Source: Cyanidioschyzon merolae
Lineage: Eukaryota
Reading direction: 5' to 3' (one strand)
Assembly: GCA_000091205.1 (NCBI GenBank)
Contig: AP006490.2
Length of the DNA stretch: 64,000 nt
Shown: in pieces, positions 10,694 to 43,375 of the stretch
Numbering within the stretch: position 1 is the first letter of the stretch
How the letters are laid out: each line of letters opens with the position of its first letter
Notes under the pieces: model-generated
Databases searched by the model: none
Told to the model about the DNA's origin: nothing
The model's input: only the letters and a program-made list of their open reading frames with translations
Position numbers and translations under genes: made by a program

Positions 10694-10949
10694 CTATGTT
10701 CACCACTTAAGTTGGCTGCAGGCGTGCAACCAGGGGATTTTGCCTGCTTTTCACGGTTTGCTCGGGAGCAGATAACAGCGCGAATGCCGAAGCGAACAAC
10801 GTTACGTCAGCGCAGCAAACCCGTTTCGCCACAATATCGTGTACATGAATATCCACCCGCAGACGTGTCTCAGCCTTTTCTTACAGGGTTCTGGTATCGG
10901 TTTCAGTTTCTCCATATACACTCCGACGCTGTGAGGCTGCCCAACAAAG

Positions 10950-11600
10950 TTAGCTTGCCGCAGCGCTGCGTGCCTCGCATTCAGCACAAGCATCTCCTGA
11001 TATTGATACCAGCGTTGAGGTCTCGGTTCATGGACTCCATGCGTTTGTTGCCGCTGGTTGATCTCACCAATGATAGGAGACCAGAACTCGTGTACGCTGT
11101 GCCATTGGGTGCTCTGTCAGCTCTTCGTGCTGATTTGTCGACGAAATGCTCCGCTGGCCTCGCTCCAACTCAACGTCCTAGGGTGTATATTCCAGCTCAT
11201 CCCTTCGATTTTTCGAAAATGAACGCATTTGCTTATAGCCTGAGATGAGAACCTTCCCGCATCGAGCAGCACATGCGGAATAAAGACCAAATGTGCCCCG
11301 GTTGGTCACCATGTGCTGAACGCTTCATCAATTCGCCCGGTGGAGCGATCGTGACGATTCAGGACCCCAAACTCTCCTTCTATGGGGATGAACCACGGGT
11401 GACAAGAAGGAATGAAACCAGCTCTACCCCTCGATAGAATTGGCAAGTGCTCGAACTGAAGCAGAACGGCTGAATACCACTGTGTCCAATAGAAGGACCT
11501 TACCAGACGTTTGGGACAAGTCTTCAATGACTCGACAAAAAGAGGGCGCTGCTGCATGAGTGTTCTCTTCAGCGGAACTGAGGCAGCCAAATGAATCCAC
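10950..11600 (-). mobile_element. Degraded fragment (copy 4) of the TnpB/Fanzor-like element family, minus strand, frameshifted
   Basis: The minus-strand translation gives VELERGQRSISSTNQHEELTEHPMAQRTRVLVSYH and, after a frameshift, GNKRMESMNRDLNAGINIRRC. These match copy 1 ([39 protein letters not shown]...[21 protein letters not shown]). The plus-strand ORF 10712..11248 is the mirror image of the same region. Confidence 0.5.
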
Positions 11601-14599: not shown

Positions 14600-15355
14600 T
14601 CAGCAACAGGTTATCACGCTTTGAGATAGACATATCCAGAAGCAATCTCCTGATCGGCGGCGGGGCGCAGGACAGCCGCTGCGCGTGCACGCGCACCTGG
14701 CAGATCCGGCGGGCACGAGACACGACGCTCTGGTCGCTCCTGAGGGGAACAGTGATCCTGATCATTGGCGTGCTATTCTACTGTAAAAGTTGTATTCGCG
14801 TTGAGGTCGTAGCAAAGTATAGGTTTTCTGTTCCATCCTATTCCGACCCTCAATTGAGTATATTCAAGTGTTTTTTCGAAGTAAATAACAGAAGCGTTCA
14901 AAGAGCGTTCGTTTTCATAAAAAATTAAAAGGAAAGGCATGGAAATGGAAGTGGAGGATCCCGGAGGGCCGATATCGCCGGCTCTCGGAAAAGAAGGATA
15001 AACATGGCGGAGCAAAGAGGAACAGGAAGTGATGAAGAATCAAAAGGGGGCGAGGTTCTACGTCGAAGGCGGCAAGAAAGGCAACTGTACGGCGATATTG
15101 TAGTGAAAGCCTGTGTTCTTAAATATATCAAGGATCCGTAGAAGGAAAAGTTGCCGGACGCCATCAAAAACCGTCTCGAGTCGTACTCCATGAGTATGAT
15201 AAAGGCTTCTTCAGGACCGACGCATTTGGTGAGGGAGATGTATCGCTACGTGACGAACATGGAAACGGTCGAGATTCCGGACGAGTTTTTCGACAACACA
15301 TTTTTTCGTCACTTGATGCTTGGCACAGGGGAAGAGCGGAAGGATATAAGAGCTA

Positions 15356-17506
15356 GTGCATGCCCCTCACGAACAACATCCCTTTTGCAGGTTCGAGGGT
15401 AATCGAAACAAGGGGGACTGGGGTATTTACGACTATGGGGCGATGAAGTACATCACGAACCTGAAGAACCATTTGAAAACGAACCTCGAACGTTTCATGA
15501 TACGCGCCGTGTTTGCACTCTACCGGGGCCTGTCTCGCAAAGGAATATGGGCGATTATCAATGGCATCACGAACGATCGAAACTATGGAAATGAGGTCGA
15601 ATTCGTTGACAAGAAGGAGTCAAACCAGAGCACGAATGAGAATTCCGTCATCCGTGCGGTTATCGAAGAGCATCGTGCGGTACTGGGGCTGGCGAATCCA
15701 ACAGACAAGATATCAGAGTTGAAAAAAGATAGGGAAAGATACGATCGCCTCGTTCTGCGCTATTTTGTGTTTCTGGACCGAGAGCTCGAACGCAAAGCGG
15801 AGATGAAGCTGAGTGAAGAGACAAATGAAGAGTGGGAGAGACGGAAGGCTTTCCTAATGGGTAAGCGCTTCGACGTGGTTCCAATGTGCAAGATCAAGTC
15901 ACATTTTATGACTATCGACTCCGGCGTCCTTTACGGCATCATGAGGGAGATCTGTCCGGAGTTCGATGTAAGGAAGACAGAGTTCCCCGGTGAAAACCGT
16001 GAGACGTACTGGAAGAATATCTTCGATTTCAAACGTCGCAAAGTCAGCAAACAAAAGGTATTCACTGGGTTGATCGAAACCGAAAGAGTAGCCTTGTGTA
16101 TACACTATCGGAGGTTGAAGAAAGATCGGCCAGTCCCTCCCTCGGCTGCGTCCGTCACGAAAAATGAAGAAAAGGAGGAGGCTGGTCCTGCGAAGCAGGA
16201 GGTAGAGGATAACGACCTTGTCGTTCACGCGGCGAAGAATGAAGAAAAGAAGGAGGCGGGTCCTGCGACGCAGGAAGTGGAGGGTAACGACCTTGTCGTT
16301 GACGTGACGAAGGATGAAGAAAAGAAGGATGCGGATCCTGCGACGCAGGAGGTAGAGAATAACAGCTTCATCGTTAACGCGACGAAGCATGAAGAAAAGA
16401 AGGAGGCGGGTCCTGCGATGCAGGAGGTGCATGAGAAGGACCTTCTCGTTGGCGCGGCGAAGGATGAAGATGAGAAGGATGCGGATCCTGCGACGCAGGA
16501 GGTAGAGAATAACGACTTTATGGTTGACGTGACGAAGCATGAAGAAAATGAGGATGCGGGTCCTGCGACCCAGAAAGTGCAAGATAACGACTTTGTCGTT
16601 GGCGCGGACCCTGGGAATACGAATATCATCACCATTGCAGCACCGAAGCGTGCGGAAGATCGTACTGACGGCAACTTGCGTCAGAAAGACATGCGTCTTT
16701 TGAGGTTCTCGAGAGCGAGATACTATCGAGAATCGGGAATCATGAATGCGAGGAAGAAAATCGAGACTTGGAATTCAGGAATGAAAGAGCACCTGGAAGC
16801 TGTGAGCGAGGTAACGAGCCGAGGAGCGGACTTTGAAGCTTTTCGGAAATTCATGGAAGTTCGTGTTGCGCATTGGGATGCTCTGTGGGAGGAGTATACC
16901 AAGCCCCGGTGGGCTCGACTGCGTATGAATCTATACGGTGGGAGGCAGCGCGCATTCCCAAATTTTTTCAATCAGTTGAGTGCCCTGAAGGAGGATGAAA
17001 GTCAGAGGCTCGTAGTAGCGTACGCAGCAGGGCGCTGGAAGACCCAAAAAGGGACTACTCCGGCCCCAACGACAAGAACGTTCAAGGAGTGCGCAAGGCG
17101 TTTCGTTACGATACCTGTAGATGAGTTCCGAACGTCGTATACGCACCATGAACTGGGGTGTACACTCCAGAGGGTGGAGATGGAAAAGTGCCAGCGGAGC
17201 CCTGAGGACACAGCAAAGCACGGACTGCTGACGGAGGAGCAAATGGAAAGGATGGCAAAAGTTCGTGGACTGCTTGCATTAGTGAGTACAACCAGTGATG
17301 GTAAGAAACGTATGGAATTCGTGAACCGTGACTTTAACGCCGCTATCAATATACGGAAATGTGCGGTGCTGGAGAAGAGACCTCCAGAATTGACAGGAGA
17401 GAATTTCGTTGGACAACCTCTCAAAGTCGAACTATATGAGAAAAAGTTGGAGGCAGTTGTAGGCGGCCGGTCGAGAAAGGCTGGGAGGCGTCTGCACGTC
17501 AGGTAA
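15356..17506 (+). CDS. TnpB/Fanzor-like RuvC-fold nuclease protein (transposon-encoded, IS605-OrfB/Cas12-related family)
   Basis: RuvC-I-like [15 protein letters not shown]. TnpB-like linker [26 protein letters not shown]. Zn-finger-like segment [11 protein letters not shown]...EKCQRS. Diagnostic RuvC-III motif [18 protein letters not shown] near the C-terminus. TAA stop. Confidence 0.7.
16160..16609 (+). repeat. In-frame 75-bp (25-aa) tandem repeat x6 inside the Fanzor-like ORF
   Basis: Units [150 protein letters not shown]. The last unit runs into the RuvC-I strand. Copy 2 has a single unit. Confidence 0.85.
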
Positions 17507-17824
17507 AGAGTTTTGTCTAAGGCGCCGGTCGTCTCAACTGTACACTGGCACCATCGCCGGTGCATTCGACAGATGGTGTCCATGTTGTACTGAATTTACC
17601 AGTCTCCGGCGTCGTGCAGCCGCGGCCCCGCTGCAGCACTGGCAGTGTCGCCACCGCCGTCCTTTCGTTCGCTCATCGGGTATCGTCTCCAGTCCGACTT
17701 GCTAGTGGCCCGCCTTCCCTGTAGAGGAAACAGGGACTGGACTGTTCGTGACCTCGCTACCGAGTTCCGGTCGCTGTTTGAGTTCTCTTGCAGTTGCGGT
17801 TTCCGCTAACTACTTGTCTTTCGC

Positions 17825-18598
17825 ATGGCGCGTGGCCCAAAGAAGCATCTGAAGCGCCTGGCAGCGCCAAGGCACTGGATGCTCGCTAAACTTGGCGGCA
17901 TCTGGGCCCCTCGACCTTCAGCTGGCCCACATAAGCTTCGAGAATGTTTACCTCTGATCATCATTCTGCGAAACCGGTTGAAGTACGCGCTCACTGGGCG
18001 AGAGGCTATGCAGATCCTCATGCAGCGGCTGGTTCGTGTGGACGGGAAAGTTCGCACAGACCGCACTTTTCCCGCTGGCTTCATGGATGTTATCCATATC
18101 GAAAAAACCAATGAGACATTTCGTTTACTCTACGACACAAAGGGGCGTTTTGTGCTCCATCGAATCACACCCGAGGAGGGCAAGTACAAACTGTGCCGCA
18201 TCAAGCGTCAACAACTGGGTGCCCGTGGCATCCCGTACATCGTGACACACGACGGGCGCACCATTCGGTATCCAGATCCATTGATCAAAGTGCACGACAC
18301 CGTCGTCCTTGATATCGAGACCGGGAAGATCACGGACTTTGTCAAATTCGACATCGGCGCGCTCTGCATGATCACCGGAGGCCACAATATTGGTCGCGTT
18401 GGTGTCGTACAGCACCGCGAGAGACACCCGGGTGCGACTGAAATTGTGCACTTGAAGGACGCTGCAGGGCGAGAGTTTGCGACACAGATCAGTAACGTGT
18501 TCGTTATTGGTCGAGAAAAGTCGCTCGTCTCGCTACCGCGTGGCAAGGGAGTGAAGCTCTCCGTCGTTGAGGAGCGCGAGCGGCGAGGCCTGCTCTAG
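17825..18598 (+). CDS. RPS4: 40S ribosomal protein S4 (eS4)
   Basis: [44 protein letters not shown]... is near-identical to eukaryotic RPS4 along the full length (257 aa). TAG stop. Confidence 0.95.
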
Positions 18599-33184: not shown

Positions 33185-34537
33185 ATGGGTAAGGAAAAGA
33201 CGCACGTTTCCGTGGTGGTTATCGGTCACGTGGACTCGGGCAAGTCGACTACGACGGGTCACTTGATCTACAAGTGCGGCGGCATCGACAAGCGAACGAT
33301 CGAAAAGTTTGAGAAAGAGGCGAACGAAATGGGAAAAGGTTCGTTCAAGTACGCGTGGGTGCTGGATAAACTAAAGGCGGAACGGGAGCGAGGGATCACG
33401 ATCGATATCGCGCTGTGGAAGTTCGAGACGGACAAGTACTACTTCACGATCATCGACGCTCCTGGGCATCGTGACTTTATCAAGAACATGATCACGGGTA
33501 CGTCTCAGGCGGACCTTGCGATCTTGGTGGTTGCGTCTCCTCCTGGAGAGTTTGAGGCTGGTATCTCGTCGAACGGACAAACTCGTGAACACGCGCTGCT
33601 CGCGTACACGCTCGGTGTGAAGCAGATGATTGTGGCGGTGAACAAGATGGACGATAAGAACGTGAACTGGTCTCAGTCGCGTTATGATGAAATCACCAAA
33701 GAGTTGAACTTGTATTTGAAGAAGGTTGGCTACAACCCGGACAAGGTTCCCAAGGTACCAATCTCGGGCTGGACTGGCGACAACCTGTTCGAGCGAGTGC
33801 CATCGGACCATCCGCTTGCCAAGTGGTACAAGGGACCAGCCCTGCTGGAGGCGCTTGATGCCATCGAGCCTCCGAAGCGCCCCACCGAGAAGCCACTGCG
33901 TCTGCCCCTGCAGGATGTGTACAAGATCGGCGGTATTGGCACGGTGCCCGTCGGTCGGGTAGAGACGGGTATCCTGCGGCCAGGCATGGTGGTTACCTTC
34001 GCGCCCACTGGTCTGACGACTGAAGTCAAGTCAGTTGAAATGCATCACGAGTCACTCCCCGAGGCTGGGCCAGGTGACAACGTTGGCTTCAACGTCAAGA
34101 ACGTGAGTGTCAAGGAACTGAAGCGCGGCTTTGTATGCGGAGACAGCAAGAACGACCCACCCAAGGCCGCGGAGGACTTCAAGGCACAGGTCATCATTCT
34201 GAATCATCCGGGCGAGATCCGGGCCGGGTACGCGCCCGTTGTTGATTGCCATACTGCCCATATCGCCTGTCGGTTTGCGGAGCTCTTAGAGAAAATCGAT
34301 CGCCGCACCGGCAAGAAGATCGAAGAGAACCCTGAAAAGGTGAAAGCCGGCGATGCCTGCATGGTTCGAATGATTCCGTCCAAACCCATGTGTGTGGAAA
34401 CGTTTAGCGAGTATCCACCACTAGGGCGGTTTGCCGTTCGTGATATGCGCCAGACGGTGGCCGTAGGCGTCATCAAGGAGGTCAACAAGAAAGAGGCGGA
34501 AGGCAAAGTAACGAAAGCAGCAGCGAAGAAGGCATGA
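33185..34537 (+). CDS. EEF1A: Translation elongation factor 1-alpha (eEF1A)
   Basis: [46 protein letters not shown]... with GTP-binding motifs and the full eEF1A body (450 aa), single exon. TGA stop. Confidence 0.97.
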
Positions 34538-38171: not shown

Positions 38172-38264
38172 GCTCGTGACAACGCAGAAAGTACTGGGCT
38201 TTCGCAAGTCCGTGCGCACTGGCCAACCTTTTTTTAGTTCTCCAAGCAGTTTCACCTATGCACC

Positions 38265-40330
38265 CTGAAAATAAACGTCTTTCTAAGGAAAAACGCTGCC
38301 ACCGGCGGGCGCAATACAGTCTTGGCGAGAAACCCGCCCTGGACAAGACTTCTCCAACTGACGTGCAGACGCCTGCCAGCCTTTCTGGAACGGGCACCCA
38401 CTACTGCTTCCAATTCTTTCTCATATAGTTCCATTTTGAGAGGCTGTCCGACAAAATGCTCTCTTGTCTACGCTGAAGGTCTGTTCTCCATCACCGCACA
38501 TCGCCTTCAATGGATAGCGGTATTTACGTCCCGGTTCTCAAACTCCATACGTTTCTTGTTATTGATCGTACTTACTGATGCAAGTTGTCCACGAACTTTT
38601 GCCATCCTTTCCATTTGCTCTTCCGTTAGCTGTTCGTACTTTTTTATATCTTCAGGGCTCCGCTCGCACTTTTTCATCTCAACTCTCTGGCGTGTACAAC
38701 CCAGTTCGTGGTTTGTATACGATGCCCGGAACTCATCGATGGGTATCGTAACGAAACGCCTTGCGCACTCTCTGAATGTTCTTGTCGTTGGAGCTGGCCT
38801 AGTCCCTTTTTGGGTCTTCCAGCGCCCTGCTCGGTACACTACTAAAAGCCTCTGACTGTCCTCCTCCTTCAAGGCGCTCAACCCATTGAAAAAGTTTGCG
38901 AACGCCCGCTGCATCCCCCAGTACAATTTCATAATGAAAAGAGAACACCGGGGCTTTGTATATTCTTTCCACAGCGCCTCCCAATGGGCAACACGAACTT
39001 CCATGAATTTCCGAAAAGCTTCCTAGGCCGCTCCGCGGCTCGTCACCTCGCTCAAAGCTTCCAGGTGATCATTCATTCCTGCATTCTACGTCTCGATTTT
39101 CTTGCTTGCATTCATGATTCCCGATTCTCGATGGTATCTCGCTCTCGAGAATCTCAACAGACGCATGTCTTTCTGAGGCAAGTTACCGTCAATGCCATCT
39201 TCCGCACGCTTGGGTACTGCGATGGTTACGATATTCGTGTTCCCGGGGTCCGCGCCAACGACAAGGTCGTTATCCTGGGGATTATACATTTCAGGGCCCA
39301 CCTCCATCTTATCTTCATGCTTCGTCACGGGCGAAGCGCAAGGCGCGATGGGACGATCCACCTTCAACCTCCGATACTGTACACACATGGCTACTCCATC
39401 GGTTTCGATCATCCCAGCGAATACCTTTTATTTGCTCACTTTGGGACGTTTGAAATCGAAGATATTCTTCCAGTACGTCTCACGGTTTTCACCGGGGAAC
39501 TCTGTCTTCCTTACATCGAACTCCGGACAGATCTCCCTCATGATGCCTTGAAGGACTCTGGAGCCGATGGTCACACAGTGTGACTCGATGTTGTTCAACG
39601 GAACGACGTTAAATTGCTTCCCCATTAGGAAAGCCTTTCGTATCTCCGACGCTTCATTTTTCTCCTCACTCAGCTTCATCTATGCCTCGCGTTCCAGTCC
39701 TCGGTCCAGGAACACGAAATAGCGCAGGATGAGGCGATCGTATCTTTTCTTATCTTTTTTTTCATCTCTGATAACTTTTCTGTTCGGTTCGCCAGCCCCA
39801 GTACCGCACGATGCTCTTGTATAACCCAACGGATTACAGGAGCTTCATTCTTTCTCCTGCGTGATGTCTTCTTGTCGAAGAATTCGATCTCCTGTTCATT
39901 CTGGCAATCCTTCGTGATGCCATTGATAATCGCCCATATTCCTTTGCGAGCGATGCCCGGGTAGAGTGCATAGACGGAGCGTTTCATGAAGCGTTCGAGG
40001 TTCATCGTCAAATGGTTCTTCAGGTCCGTATGGTACTTGATCGTCCCGTAGGTTTAAAGATCCGAATCACCCCTGTATCGTGTACCCTCAGGGCGGTACT
40101 CGGCGTGATTCTCGTGGAGGGCATGAACCCGCTCATTTCCCCTCCGCGTTTCCCCTGTGCCAAGCATCAGGCGACAAATCAAGGTCCTGTCGAAAACGCT
40201 TTCGAAATCTCGACTGGTTTGATGTCCGTCACTGCTGCTGTGCCAGGGAAACTTCGTGCGCCTGATCGCACGCTGGAATGTGTTGTCGACGGGGCGCACT
40301 TCGGTGCAATGGATGGAACGTTGCGGAGCG
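38265..40330 (-). mobile_element. TnpB/Fanzor-like element, copy 2 (inverted, frameshifted/degraded, single repeat unit). Boundaries are approximate
   Basis: Minus-strand ORF pieces 40054..40299, 39676..40011, 39428..39679, 39086..39412, 38507..39004 and 38252..38434 are colinear with copy 1 protein (LMLGTGE..., [11 protein letters not shown]..., [69 protein letters not shown]..., [23 protein letters not shown]). Conserved 3' tail is present. Confidence 0.65.
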
Positions 40331-40533: not shown

Positions 40534-42717
40534 TTACGCTGCATTCCCCGATTCTCTTTTCGCGAAAAGCTCGTACTCAACCTCTAGACTATCGTTTGTG
40601 GGATAGTCGGCTACAACCCGCTCGTACAAGTAGAGCGCATTCTCGTTCGTGACACTCTCGTCGATGTAGGCGCGTGCCTCGCGCAGCAGACGTGCGCTAT
40701 CTCGAGACAGACCCCACAGATGCAGCCGAATACCATAGCTCCTATACTGACGGGCTAGGGAGTCTAGCGCCTCTAGCGCTGTCGCGTCCCAGATGCGGCT
40801 ACCAGAGAAGTCGATGATCACGTGCTCATGGCCTTCGGCACGATCCCGTGCTGGGTCGAACAGACGACTGAAGCGCTCCGCCGTGCCAAAGAACAGCGGA
40901 CCGTCAATCCGGTATCCCCGCCATCCGCGCGTTTGCTCGTCCTCCGAAATAAAGCTCTGGGCGGTAATGCGTCGCGACGCTTTATAGGCAAAGACCAGCG
41001 CCGAGAATACCACACCAAACAGGACCGCCAGGGCGACGTTGCGCGTTGCTACAGTCATCAGGGCAACGCTCACAATGGTCAGCGAATCAGCGAGAGGTAT
41101 GGCACGAAACAAGCGCAGCGATGCCCATTCGAATGAGCCCAGCGCCACCAGCACCATAAGGCTTGCAATGGCTGGGACGGGAATCCGAATCATCAGTCCG
41201 CTCGGATTTCTCGCCAACACGAGAAGACACAGCGCCGCAGTCAGTCCAGAGAGACGCCCGCGTCCCCCTGATTTCGTGTTCAGAAGCGACTGGCCCAGGA
41301 GGCCGCAGCCGCCCACGCCACCGAATAAGCCCGCGGCGATATTCCCTGCCCCAAGCGCTAGACACTCCCGACGCGTGCTACCCCGCGATTCCGTGACTTC
41401 GTCTACCAAAGTCATGGTTAAAAGAGATTCCAAAAGACCGATGAATGCGAGACCAAGCGCGGTGCTCAGAATGGCCATCCATGCCAGCGGTGTTGACGGC
41501 AGGGCTGCCCAGGATACGCCAATGGCCCCTGACTGTGCCAGCGTGTCGCGCAAAAAGTCGCCAAGCCGCCGCACAGGCGCTTGCGTCACCTCCGCATAAA
41601 TGGATGCCACGAGGATGCCCGCTAGTGGGCTTGGGAGCCAACGCAACAGCTCAGCGAGGCGGTGCTGCCACCGATGGGTACTATCGGGGCGCCGGCGCTC
41701 TAGTCGCTGAATGATCAAGGGCCATACATGGGCGACTCCAGCGGCGAGCGCTGCGACGATCAACGCTGCACGCAACATGTTACCCTGGAGCCAGGGTGCG
41801 CCCGGGCTCAGCCCGGTTCCCGCTGGAAGCTGAAACGCATAGACCTGACTTGTCGCCGTCAAGATGGCGATGCCGCTGATGAATCCCAGAAAGGTAGGGT
41901 ACGATATCAGCCGCACAAACTTTCCCAAACGATAGATCCCGAAGAAAAGCTGGAGTATACCGCTGAGCACCACGGCGGCAGCGACCGCTGCTGCGCCGTA
42001 CTGTTGATAGAGAGGCGCTTGCAGAATAATGAGCGCTGCAGATGTTCCCGAGATCATGCCAGGGCGTCCTCCCAGTGCGGCAGTTATCGCACACAGGAGA
42101 CCAGTCGAGACGATTCCAGCGAGCGGCGGCACGCCCGTGGCCAACGCGCAAGACGCCGCCGCAGGCAGCAGCGCCATCGCCACCGTAATGCCCGCCAGCA
42201 CTTCCTCTACCGTCGAGCGTAGCGGATAGCGCGCTGTGCGTTCGTCCAAAATCCGACGCTCTCCAACGAAATAGCGCCCGATATCCTCACGTGGTGCAAC
42301 GAGCGGGAAGAGCCCTCGCTCACCAGGCTTGGGACGGTGCCTCGCTTCGGCGTCGGGGGTACCCCCTGGCGCCGAACCTGTCCCCCGTACGCGAGCAAGT
42401 GCTCCGCAGCGCGTACGCCGCCTCGCGCGGAACCCAGGCACCACCAGCGAGTTGCACTGGCTCCGGTTCCGTACGACGAAACGTACGCCGCTACCGCTGA
42501 AGGTATTCGTTACTATGAAACCGCCTAAAGCATTCTCAACGCCCATGTTCCGACGAAAGTACCTTGCGTGTCCAGTGAACAGGCAGTGCACAACAAGGCG
42601 CTCGTGCATTGCCGATGCTTCCGACGCGAGCGCTGAGATCCGTACATGCAATCTCGGATGGCGGGCAGTTTGATCTCCGCATGAATCTATAATGTGGGGA
42701 GTATCGGGCATTCGCAA
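40534..42717 (-). CDS. SulP-family sulfate/anion transporter. The about 150-aa N-terminal part of the ORF is probably upstream non-coding read-through, with the true start at an internal Met
   Basis: Multi-TM core (TVEEVLAGITVAMALLPAAASCALATGVPPLAGIVSTG...GGRPGMISGTSAALIIL...) plus C-terminal STAS-like region (YRIDGPLFFGTAERF...VIIDFSGSRIWDATALEALDSLARQY). TAA stop. Confidence 0.8.
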   Translation of the reverse strand: MRMPDTPHIIDSCGDQTARHPRLHVRISALASEASAMHERLVVHCLFTGHARYFRRNMGVENALGGFIVTNTFSGSGVRFVVRNRSQCNSLVVPGFRARRRTRCGALARVRGTGSAPGGTPDAEARHRPKPGERGLFPLVAPREDIGRYFVGERRILDERTARYPLRSTVEEVLAGITVAMALLPAAASCALATGVPPLAGIVSTGLLCAITAALGGRPGMISGTSAALIILQAPLYQQYGAAAVAAAVVLSGILQLFFGIYRLGKFVRLISYPTFLGFISGIAILTATSQVYAFQLPAGTGLSPGAPWLQGNMLRAALIVAALAAGVAHVWPLIIQRLERRRPDSTHRWQHRLAELLRWLPSPLAGILVASIYAEVTQAPVRRLGDFLRDTLAQSGAIGVSWAALPSTPLAWMAILSTALGLAFIGLLESLLTMTLVDEVTESRGSTRRECLALGAGNIAAGLFGGVGGCGLLGQSLLNTKSGGRGRLSGLTAALCLLVLARNPSGLMIRIPVPAIASLMVLVALGSFEWASLRLFRAIPLADSLTIVSVALMTVATRNVALAVLFGVVFSALVFAYKASRRITAQSFISEDEQTRGWRGYRIDGPLFFGTAERFSRLFDPARDRAEGHEHVIIDFSGSRIWDATALEALDSLARQYRSYGIRLHLWGLSRDSARLLREARAYIDESVTNENALYLYERVVADYPTNDSLEVEYELFAKRESGNAA

Positions 42718-43345
42718 TTTTTTTTTCAGTGAGTTGAGTGCCTTGAAGGAGGATGAAAGTCAAAGGCTCGTAGTAGCGTACGAAGCAAGGCGCTGGACGA
42801 CCCAACAAGGGTGTACACCAGATCCCACGACGAGAACGTATACGGAGTGCGCAAGGCGTTTTGTTATAATACCGGTAGATGGATTTCGAGCATTGTATAC
42901 ACACCATGAACTGGGCTGTACACTTCAGAGGGTCGAGATGGAAAAGTGCCAGCGGGGACCTGAGGATATAAAAAAAGTACGGACCGCTGACAGAAGAGCA
43001 AATGGAAAGGATAGCGAAAGTTCGAGGATTGCTTGCGTTAGTAAGTACAATCAACGGCAAGAAACGTATGGAGTTTGTGAACCGAGACTTTAACGCCGCA
43101 ATCAATATAAGGAAATGTGCGGTGAGAGAGGAAAGACCTCTCGGGTCGACGAGAGAGAATTTTGGAGGAAAACCGCTCAAAGTTAAACTATATGAGAAAA
43201 AGTTTGAAGCAGTAGTAGGTGGCCGGTCCAAAAAGACGGGCAGGCTTCTGCACATCAGTCGGAGACATTTCTTCTAGGGCGGCCCGGTCGCCACTACTGT
43301 ACACCGCTGGCGTCGTTCGCCTCCTGAACAGCGTTCGGTGTCGGC
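42715..43345 (+). mobile_element. TnpB/Fanzor-like element, copy 3. A 5'-truncated 3' fragment that begins at a poly-T tract
   Basis: About 90% nucleotide identity to copy 1 positions about 16962-17590. Encodes [20 protein letters not shown]... and [19 protein letters not shown] with frameshifts. Conserved post-stop tail is present. Confidence 0.65.
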
Positions 43346-43375
43346 GATGGCGATGGCGATGGCTTTCCAGGCTCC

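Follow-up and report, generated by a model that had tools for sequence, protein, structure and literature searches.

Behind a nuclease-like gene in a 64,000-nucleotide stretch of nuclear DNA from the red alga Cyanidioschyzon merolae 10D (the window), a first-pass annotation had noticed a block shared by three repeat copies and proposed it as the scaffold of a guide (omega) RNA. The question raised by this locus is whether the tail of the gene encodes such an RNA and, if so, whether the copies at hand could still supply one. The tail forms the right-end module of CMe-1A, a Fanzor1 transposon. We consider it probable, though well short of certain, that this module encodes the omega-RNA scaffold of the CMe-1A nuclease; for the family as a whole, this explanation does better than any other considered. 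Transcription, processing, protein binding, guide use, and a TAM are ascribed to the CMe-1A tail by analogy with characterized systems. In the literature searched, no paper links a Fanzor guide RNA to C. merolae.

The Fanzor1 element and its copies in the window

The repeats in the window are copies of CMe-1A, a Fanzor1 family published from C. merolae with ~150 copies at ~80% identity to their consensus, a length of ~3 kb, no TIRs, no determined TSDs, and a 5′ 635 bp common to the repeat TE-N2_CMe (Bao & Jurka 2013, PMC3627910). The Repbase entry CMe-1A/TE-N2_CMe is identical to the element described here, but that account predates RNA guidance and includes no 3′ tail structure. Copy 1 occupies 14645..17590 (+ strand) with approximate ends, the left being the start of similarity to the family core and the right being set ~6 nt past the tail module; the resulting extent of ~3 kb agrees with the Bao & Jurka consensus length. 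Genes within the window include those for ribosomal protein S4 (RPS4; 17825–18598, an exact match to C. merolae 10D BAM79871) and EF-1alpha (33185–34537, an exact match to BAM79877). Hot-spring metagenome contigs with an identical RPS4 (L082–L091) carried the Fanzor insertion in 10/10 cases at the same 319-nt distance upstream, and none of the ten presented an empty site; this is therefore an old insertion that has become fixed in the populations sampled.

The Fanzor1 ORF of copy 1 (15356..17506, + strand) comprises 716 codons and retains the RuvC residues. Its N-terminal ~110 to 135 residues (ATG near 14939) have been split off by frameshifts and a stop; they are encoded in other frames upstream of the ORF (14900–15360) and are present in full-length relatives (e.g., P0001). 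What had appeared to be an intact nuclease of 716 residues is thus an N-terminally broken gene that starts at GTG. Copy 2 (~38262–40232, − strand) is a near full-length pseudogene, with ORF similarity over ~38335–40232, several in-frame stops, and 76% amino acid identity to the copy 1 ORF over residues 392 to 715 (tblastn). Copy 3 (42675–43346, + strand) is 5′-truncated and retains only residues ~522 to 715, encoded at 42675–43304, by tblastn. A fourth, divergent Fanzor 3′ fragment (10860..11200, − strand, with similarity over ~10895–11174) retains only a linker-like motif, AUGUACAC, and was not matched by the tail covariance model described below. Each of the four copies is pseudogenised or truncated, and an intact ORF was found in none of them. 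The window copies are decayed relics, which could at most serve intact copies at other genomic sites as a source of RNA in trans.

Sequence searches of Pfam and PDB with the copy 1 ORF returned nothing significant, and its relatives carried only a weak DUF8286 label, although a profile search reached 2,354 cluster representatives at E ≤ 0.001. Because Pfam and PDB gave no usable result at the sequence level, fold comparison was needed. An AlphaFold2 model of the ORF (pLDDT 73.9, pTM 0.70) was compared with PDB by Foldseek, and the seven best matches were all Fanzor1 proteins (SpuFz, PpFz, and GtFz; E from 1e-10 to 9e-8), with a probability of 1.0 for the top match and with TnpB and Cas12 ranking after Fanzor1. 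In an alignment of 59 relatives (24–80% identity), D418 (DPGNTN) and E590 (DEFRT) were invariant and D659 (RDFNAAINI) nearly so; all three RuvC catalytic motifs (GxDPG, DEFRT, and RDxNAAxNI) are present in copy 1. The TNB (NUC) zinc-finger region gave a weak match to Pfam Cas12f1-like_TNB (E = 1.6 for copy 1 and E = 0.0017 for one relative), and the segment between RuvC-II and RuvC-III reads HH-x3-C-x9-C, not two CxxC pairs. The copy 1 ORF is a Fanzor1, as fold match and RuvC residues indicate, and the Fanzor context proposed in the first pass is borne out, the family having been published as CMe-1A. The ORF also contains six tandem 75-nt (25-residue) repeats at 16157–16606, within predicted disordered residues 259 to 403, and the number of these repeats ranges from ~1 to 6 among relatives.

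Extent and layout of the tail module

The three tail strings quoted in the first-pass annotation are real (copy 1, 17521–17562; copy 2, 38296–38339 on the − strand; copy 3, 43277–43321), and they lie directly 3′ of homologous coding sequence as delimited by tblastn (residues 392 to 715 in copy 2 and 522 to 715 in copy 3). Their similarity far exceeds chance, as 0/100 shuffles matched either string. In copy 1 coordinates, pairwise identity among the three copies is 79 to 82% over the last 107 nt of coding sequence, 59 to 74% over 17507–17530, and 43 to 60% over 17531–17560, and past 17561 it is at most 36%, which is background. Alignments of copy 1 with the other window copies by blastn end at 17524 and 17545. 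A shared block does exist, but since identity is at background past 17561, it extends ~50 to 55 nt past the copy 1 stop in primary sequence and not the 70 to 90 nt first estimated; a structure-aware model alone extends the shared module to 17482–17584, i.e., 78 nt past that stop. The placement right after the stop codon in all copies also needs qualification: the tails do follow the coding sequence, but the copy 1 stop is private and copy 2 reads through. The copy 1 TAA (17504–17506) is a premature stop, changed from TGG, beside a 1-nt deletion. The family consensus stop is a TAG or TAA within GTCTAGGGCG, equivalent to 17518–20 in copy 1; it is used by copy 3, and in copy 2 a CAG at this position results in readthrough.

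JGI metagenomes were scanned for related loci; 351 were confirmed, the majority of them from a few samples, and 80 were retrieved. With the end of the ORF as anchor, 52 non-redundant tails were obtained, and a covariance model (R1) was built from 23 type-A tails with a hand-named structure. The model identified 89 modules among the loci, and its matches in the window numbered exactly three (E = 7e-22, 3e-14, and 4e-10). In the 73 distinct related tails, which come from hot-spring metagenomes, the layout is fixed in the order H0, stop, H1, linker, H2, and end. In its family form, H0 is a weak stem across the last ~14 codons in which GGCGUCU pairs with AGACGUU. H1 is a short GC hairpin (GGCG...CGCC) after the consensus stop, with four nearly invariant outer pairs. 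A near-invariant linker, ACUACUGUACAC, separates it from H2, a long hairpin of 17 to 22 pairs with many G·U. Two subfamilies of H2 were distinguished, type A (CGUUCGA-cuu-UCGAACG) and type B (CGUUUUUC-uuuu-GAAAGGCG), which are set apart by five substitutions and a register shift of 3 nt and place a long hairpin at the same position. The distance from the consensus stop to the model end is 62 to 69 nt, with length differences that are not multiples of three.

The copy 1 tail module, a candidate omega-RNA scaffold, spans 17482..17584 (+ strand) and was matched over the full model length at 42.7 bits (E = 3.8e-10), the weakest and most degenerate of the three window matches. A remnant of H0 lies across the ORF end at 17485..17514 (+), where GAGGCGUCU is paired with AGA-GUUUU and the stem is damaged by the TGG-to-TAA change and the 1-nt deletion. 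H1 (17521..17533, +) consists of GGCG, loop ccggu, and CGUC with one G·U pair. It is followed by the linker (17534..17545, +), which reads ucaACUGUACAC as compared to the family consensus CACUACUGUACAC, the most conserved segment of the tail, and by H2 (17546..17584, +; GGCACCAUC ... GAUGGUG-U-CC), in which the sequence is rearranged relative to the family consensus. The self-complementary stretches on which the structural proposal originally drew, ggcgccgg...ccggtg, are not the conserved partners: in the family model GGCG pairs with CGUC in H1, and CCGGUG lies within the loop of H2. The unique flank 3′ of the module (17585..17600, +) would be a candidate guide, by analogy with SpuFz1, if the module is an omega RNA. 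The copy 2 module (38262..38378, − strand; model match 38296–38378, 57.9 bits) has a type B H2, AGCGUUUUUC-cuua-GAAAGACGUU, and a 7-nt insertion after the linker. The copy 3 module (43238..43346, + strand; model match 43238–43342, 85.7 bits) has a degenerate type A H2.

The right end of the element is sharp. The tail consensus holds at 70 to 99% through ...GAAAGGCGTT and then falls to background; the consensus segments run in the order ...GGCGTCTGCACGTCAGTTGGAGACGTTTTGTCTAG GGCGCGNNNNNCGCC ACTACTGTACAC CGNNGGCGTCGTTCGACTTTCGAACGGCGTT and then collapse. Among 65 distinct flanks, information content is 0.08 to 0.42 bits at +1 to +6 and ~0 from +7, which indicates that the element ends there and that each copy continues into unique sequence. 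The module therefore reaches from the last ~14 codons to ~6 nt short of the loss of all similarity. From family 5′ alignments no left end, TSD, or TAM was definable; the left end is not fixable because the 5′ regions form several (at least four) repeated types, and type-specific 5′ alignments were dominated by orthologous loci.

The 5′ core shared by the family starts near a palindrome with the consensus GCGCTCggtGAGCGC, which in copy 1 is GCGCGTGCACGCGC at 14681–14694. Upstream of this core lie at least four unrelated, individually repeated types, as fits the 5′ 635 bp that Bao & Jurka assigned to TE-N2_CMe. Copies truncated at the 5′ side with a complete 3′ tail are frequent (window 42675–43346 and 10860–11200 (−), L025/L026:486–994, and L023:6519–6866), and their frequency suggests that copying or insertion is anchored at the 3′ end. 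Five “solo tails” are full-length model matches with no upstream Fanzor coding similarity (L053:419–523, L038:1519–1618, L005:921–1001, L063:1232–1333, and L051:676–780). All five lie a few hundred nucleotides upstream of the “alpha” subtype of the element 5′ region, and four (all but that in L005) then share GGGCTCGATGTACGGGTTAGGCTCT. They may be analogues of the ghost loci of S. punctatus, in which a scaffold occurs without a nuclease gene (PMC10432273), or remnants of nested insertions.

Folding and covariation of the hairpins

In the 73 distinct model-aligned tails, standard pairs were found in 77.7% of cells, as compared to 40 to 54% when the 3′ partners were slid by 1 to 3 columns. Counts of G·U versus A·C were 149:18 in H0, 38:9 in H1, and 213:64 in H2; such an excess is expected of a sense-strand RNA and not of a DNA hairpin or an antisense transcript. 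Alignment-free folding of H2 against dinucleotide shuffles gave a mean z of −2.1 for the sense strand, with 44% of segments below −2. By the same measure, antisense H2 gave −0.83, coding controls +0.47, and flank controls +0.11. The difference between sense and antisense was significant for H2 (Wilcoxon p = 2.5e-8) and not significant for H0 plus H1 (p = 0.088). Well-kept members of the two subfamilies fold into H0-H1-H2 in both the MFE and the centroid structure, with z = −3.47 for L008 (type A) and −4.69 for L047 (type B) and 0/200 shuffles as good; their antisense strands are 15 to 22 kcal/mol weaker, and 7 of the 19 pairs in the L008 H2 are G·U. RNAalifold run on H2-only alignments of each subfamily recovered the hairpin in type A and in type B. 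On full alignments H2 was never recovered by RNAalifold (40 MAFFT tails, 4 pairs; 89 model-aligned matches, 0 pairs; 23 type-A seeds, 15 pairs). We read H2 as a genuine sense-strand hairpin of RNA type, probably preserved in those lineages of the family that are active. The structure of H1 is plausible but almost invariant and thus uninformative, and that of H0 is weakly supported.

The strand asymmetry also bears on a different account of the hairpins, in which they would be DNA-level right-end signals for a transposase acting in trans, in the style of IS200/IS605, IS91, or Helitrons, and not RNA. CMe-1A has no inverted repeats, which leaves room for a hairpin as an additional or alternative end signal at the DNA level, and such a role could coexist with an omega RNA, as it does in IS200/IS605. 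The absence of TIRs and TSDs from the family, the closure of H2 within ~6 nt of the element boundary, and the palindrome near the start of the common 5′ core would all suit such a signal, and the many 5′-truncated copies that keep a full 3′ end, together with the existence of solo tails, fit a 3′-anchored process. However, G·U exceeds A·C 3- to 8-fold in the stems family-wide, and each such pair would be a G·T mismatch in DNA; the antisense strand folds clearly worse, and the element encodes no transposase. Judged as a DNA terminal hairpin of the HUH/rolling-circle kind, H2 is subterminal but not Watson-Crick stable, given its 213 G·U versus 64 A·C. With so many G·U pairs, a role of the hairpin in DNA alone is disfavored, and we regard that explanation as unlikely.

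Formal tests of covariation do not decide the matter, since the shuffles were also beaten by a structure that was wrong by design. For the broad set, 0/500 shuffles were as good as the observed covariation, and a decoy model in which every 3′ partner was displaced by 2 columns likewise gave 0/500 in the shuffle control; this result was accordingly rejected as covariation support. As the decoy equals the real structure in this test, the excess reflects relatedness and model fitting, not selection, and the equality of decoy-model and true-model bit scores indicates that model scores reflect sequence and not structure. In the decoy alignment only 53.2% of cells were paired; when it was slid by −2, into the real register, pairing was best at 70.6%. 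The conserved structure anticipated for the tail is suggested for H2, which beats shuffles, antisense strand, and controls by folding, but the alignment-based shuffle test is also passed by the decoy.

These results have to be set against the reading that the tail is decaying transposon sequence and its hairpins ancestral or products of chance in GC-rich DNA, especially in the window copies. Sequence conservation of the tail is not above that of third codon positions (pairwise identity 0.69–0.72 versus 0.68–0.79), as decay would predict. In type A alone, pairing equals that of shuffles (77.5% versus 76.9%) and 172/500 shuffles reach the observed covariation score, and in the broad set the decoy control shows the shuffle test to be unspecific. 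The window copies, all of them pseudogenes or truncated, fold only marginally better than shuffles (z = −1.5, −2.1, and −0.8), and the pairing of H2 differs between copy 1 and its 96%-identical ortholog in L002. Several features speak against decay as the whole explanation: H2 folds in excess of shuffles, which coding and flank controls taken from these loci do not; the type A and type B hairpins have both been kept despite five substitutions and a register shift; the real register is best even in an alignment fitted to the decoy; and the linker is nearly invariant. Decay alone therefore seems to us improbable for the family. Tail integrity did not correlate with ORF length (rho = 0.18, p = 0.11) in a set that consists almost entirely of pseudogenes and was scored by crude frame tracking.

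Comparison with known guide RNAs and remaining readings

In position, size, and architecture the CMe-1A tail is the same as known guide RNAs, as it offers 62 to 69 nt, two hairpins with a linker, a possible overlap of 14 codons, and a unique flank. In SpuFz1, a ~80-nt region from the Fanzor1 stop to the right-end repeat yields an RNA of 88 to 90 nt (PMC10432273), composed of a 75-nt scaffold (stem-loop 1, a 6-nt linker, and stem 2) and a variable 3′ guide of 14 to 15 nt (Saito et al. 2023, PMC10432273). The CMe-1A tail lies at the same position and has ~75 to 80 nt, two stem-loops, and a short conserved linker; its variable flank, here a candidate guide, corresponds to the 14- to 15-nt guide of SpuFz1, the solo tails may be compared with the ghost copies, and the fold of that protein is the best structural match to the predicted model of the copy 1 ORF. 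The two are without sequence similarity, SpuFz1 has 30-nt inverted repeats whereas CMe-1A has none, and the C. merolae module, as predicted from sequence and folding, may start inside the ORF (H0) and has a longer, G·U-rich H2. The GtFz1 omega RNA of Guillardia theta overlaps 17 codons of C-terminal coding sequence, reminiscent of the ~14 codons of H0, although H0 is a weakly supported stem and the sequences are unrelated. Other Fanzor guide RNAs likewise abut the right end.

More distant systems share parts of this design. The omega RNA (reRNA) of ISDra2 TnpB, in the IS200/IS605 group, is also formed from the 3′ end of the nuclease gene and the right end, with the flank as guide, and its right end also has a DNA hairpin, so a dual role is possible. 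That system differs in being prokaryotic, in its TnpA Y1 transposase partner, in a larger ORF overlap, and in having a defined target motif and left end. Helitrons similarly carry a 3′ subterminal hairpin a few nucleotides from the end and lack TIRs and TSDs, and in other algae they act as carriers of Fanzor1 genes. In contrast, the stems of CMe-1A depend on G·U, and neither a CTRR terminus nor a RepHel gene was seen in the element.

On the omega-RNA reading, and by analogy with SpuFz1 and GtFz1, the 3′ end of a Fanzor transcript would be processed to an RNA of ~80 to 105 nt. Such an RNA would comprise an optional H0 overlapping the last ~14 codons, H1, the conserved single-stranded linker, and the G·U-rich H2, and would continue 15 to 20 nt beyond the transposon end so that the unique flank serves as guide. 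An intact Fanzor1 protein would then bind the RNA and cut matching DNA beside a TAM. The scaffold proposed in the first pass is thus supported in part, by the position, size, and layout of the tail, its sharp end, and the sense-strand folding of H2, but not by covariation, which is unspecific, or by RNAalifold on full alignments.

A location directly after the stop, on the sense strand and with G·U pairing of RNA type, would equally suit an mRNA 3′-UTR element of the Fanzor transcript that acts in 3′-end formation, stability, or translation and not as a guide scaffold. However, no such element was matched in Rfam 15, where window 14600–18000 and L008:5000–5400 gave chance-level matches only (E ≥ 1.4, far under gathering scores). 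Every characterized Fanzor with RNA data gives a guide RNA from this region, and that the module coincides so sharply with the end of the transposon is in keeping with a scaffold followed by a guide. We hold a 3′-UTR role to be very unlikely. Readthrough of the consensus stop in copy 2 and in the relatives P0006, P0008, and L075, in frames that give similar peptides (e.g., GGFLA(K/T)TV), could point to the remnant of a longer C-terminal extension conserved as protein, but this was rejected as extremely improbable on the stop-codon statistics (TAG or TAA at the consensus stop in 47/73 distinct tails) and on variation of tail length in steps that are not multiples of three, and the last 32 residues of the ORF are predicted by AlphaFold to be disordered and are not conserved in the wider family.

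If the omega-RNA reading is confirmed, the tail would provide the first omega-RNA scaffold for a red-algal Fanzor1, a compact one of ~80 to 105 nt, and would help to explain how a “non-autonomous” family remained active until it reached ~150 copies in one of the smallest eukaryotic genomes. C. merolae lives at roughly 42 to 45 °C and pH 2, so a nuclease-RNA pair from this organism could, once confirmed, interest those seeking heat-tolerant genome editors. Conceptually nothing is new here, as Fanzor1 elements are known to encode a guide RNA there; such a tail is to be expected in a transposon family known since 2013, of a system class described in 2023. In a bolder version, the tail would function as a very compact omega RNA in a thermoacidophilic alga, with truncated copies and solo tails as ghost guide loci that program a few intact nucleases and with the G·U-rich hairpin doubling as the terminus signal of a 3′-anchored transposition without TIRs or TSDs. 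We offer this as speculation that has little chance of holding in full. Some of the solo tails are embedded at a fixed place upstream of the 5′ region of one subfamily.

Two pairs of loci suggest exchange and decay among copies. Between L005:4198–4620 and L003:4848–5270, identity is 100% over the final 300 nt of coding sequence, and the tails (H1 loop and H2) and the remaining ORF differ, a pattern that indicates mosaicism or gene conversion among copies. L023:4379–4500 and L079:1583–1700 are 98% identical upstream, and their H2 3′ arms differ mostly by G-to-A and C-to-T changes, several of them at CpG, which hints at decay of some copies by transitions of the cytosine-deamination type.
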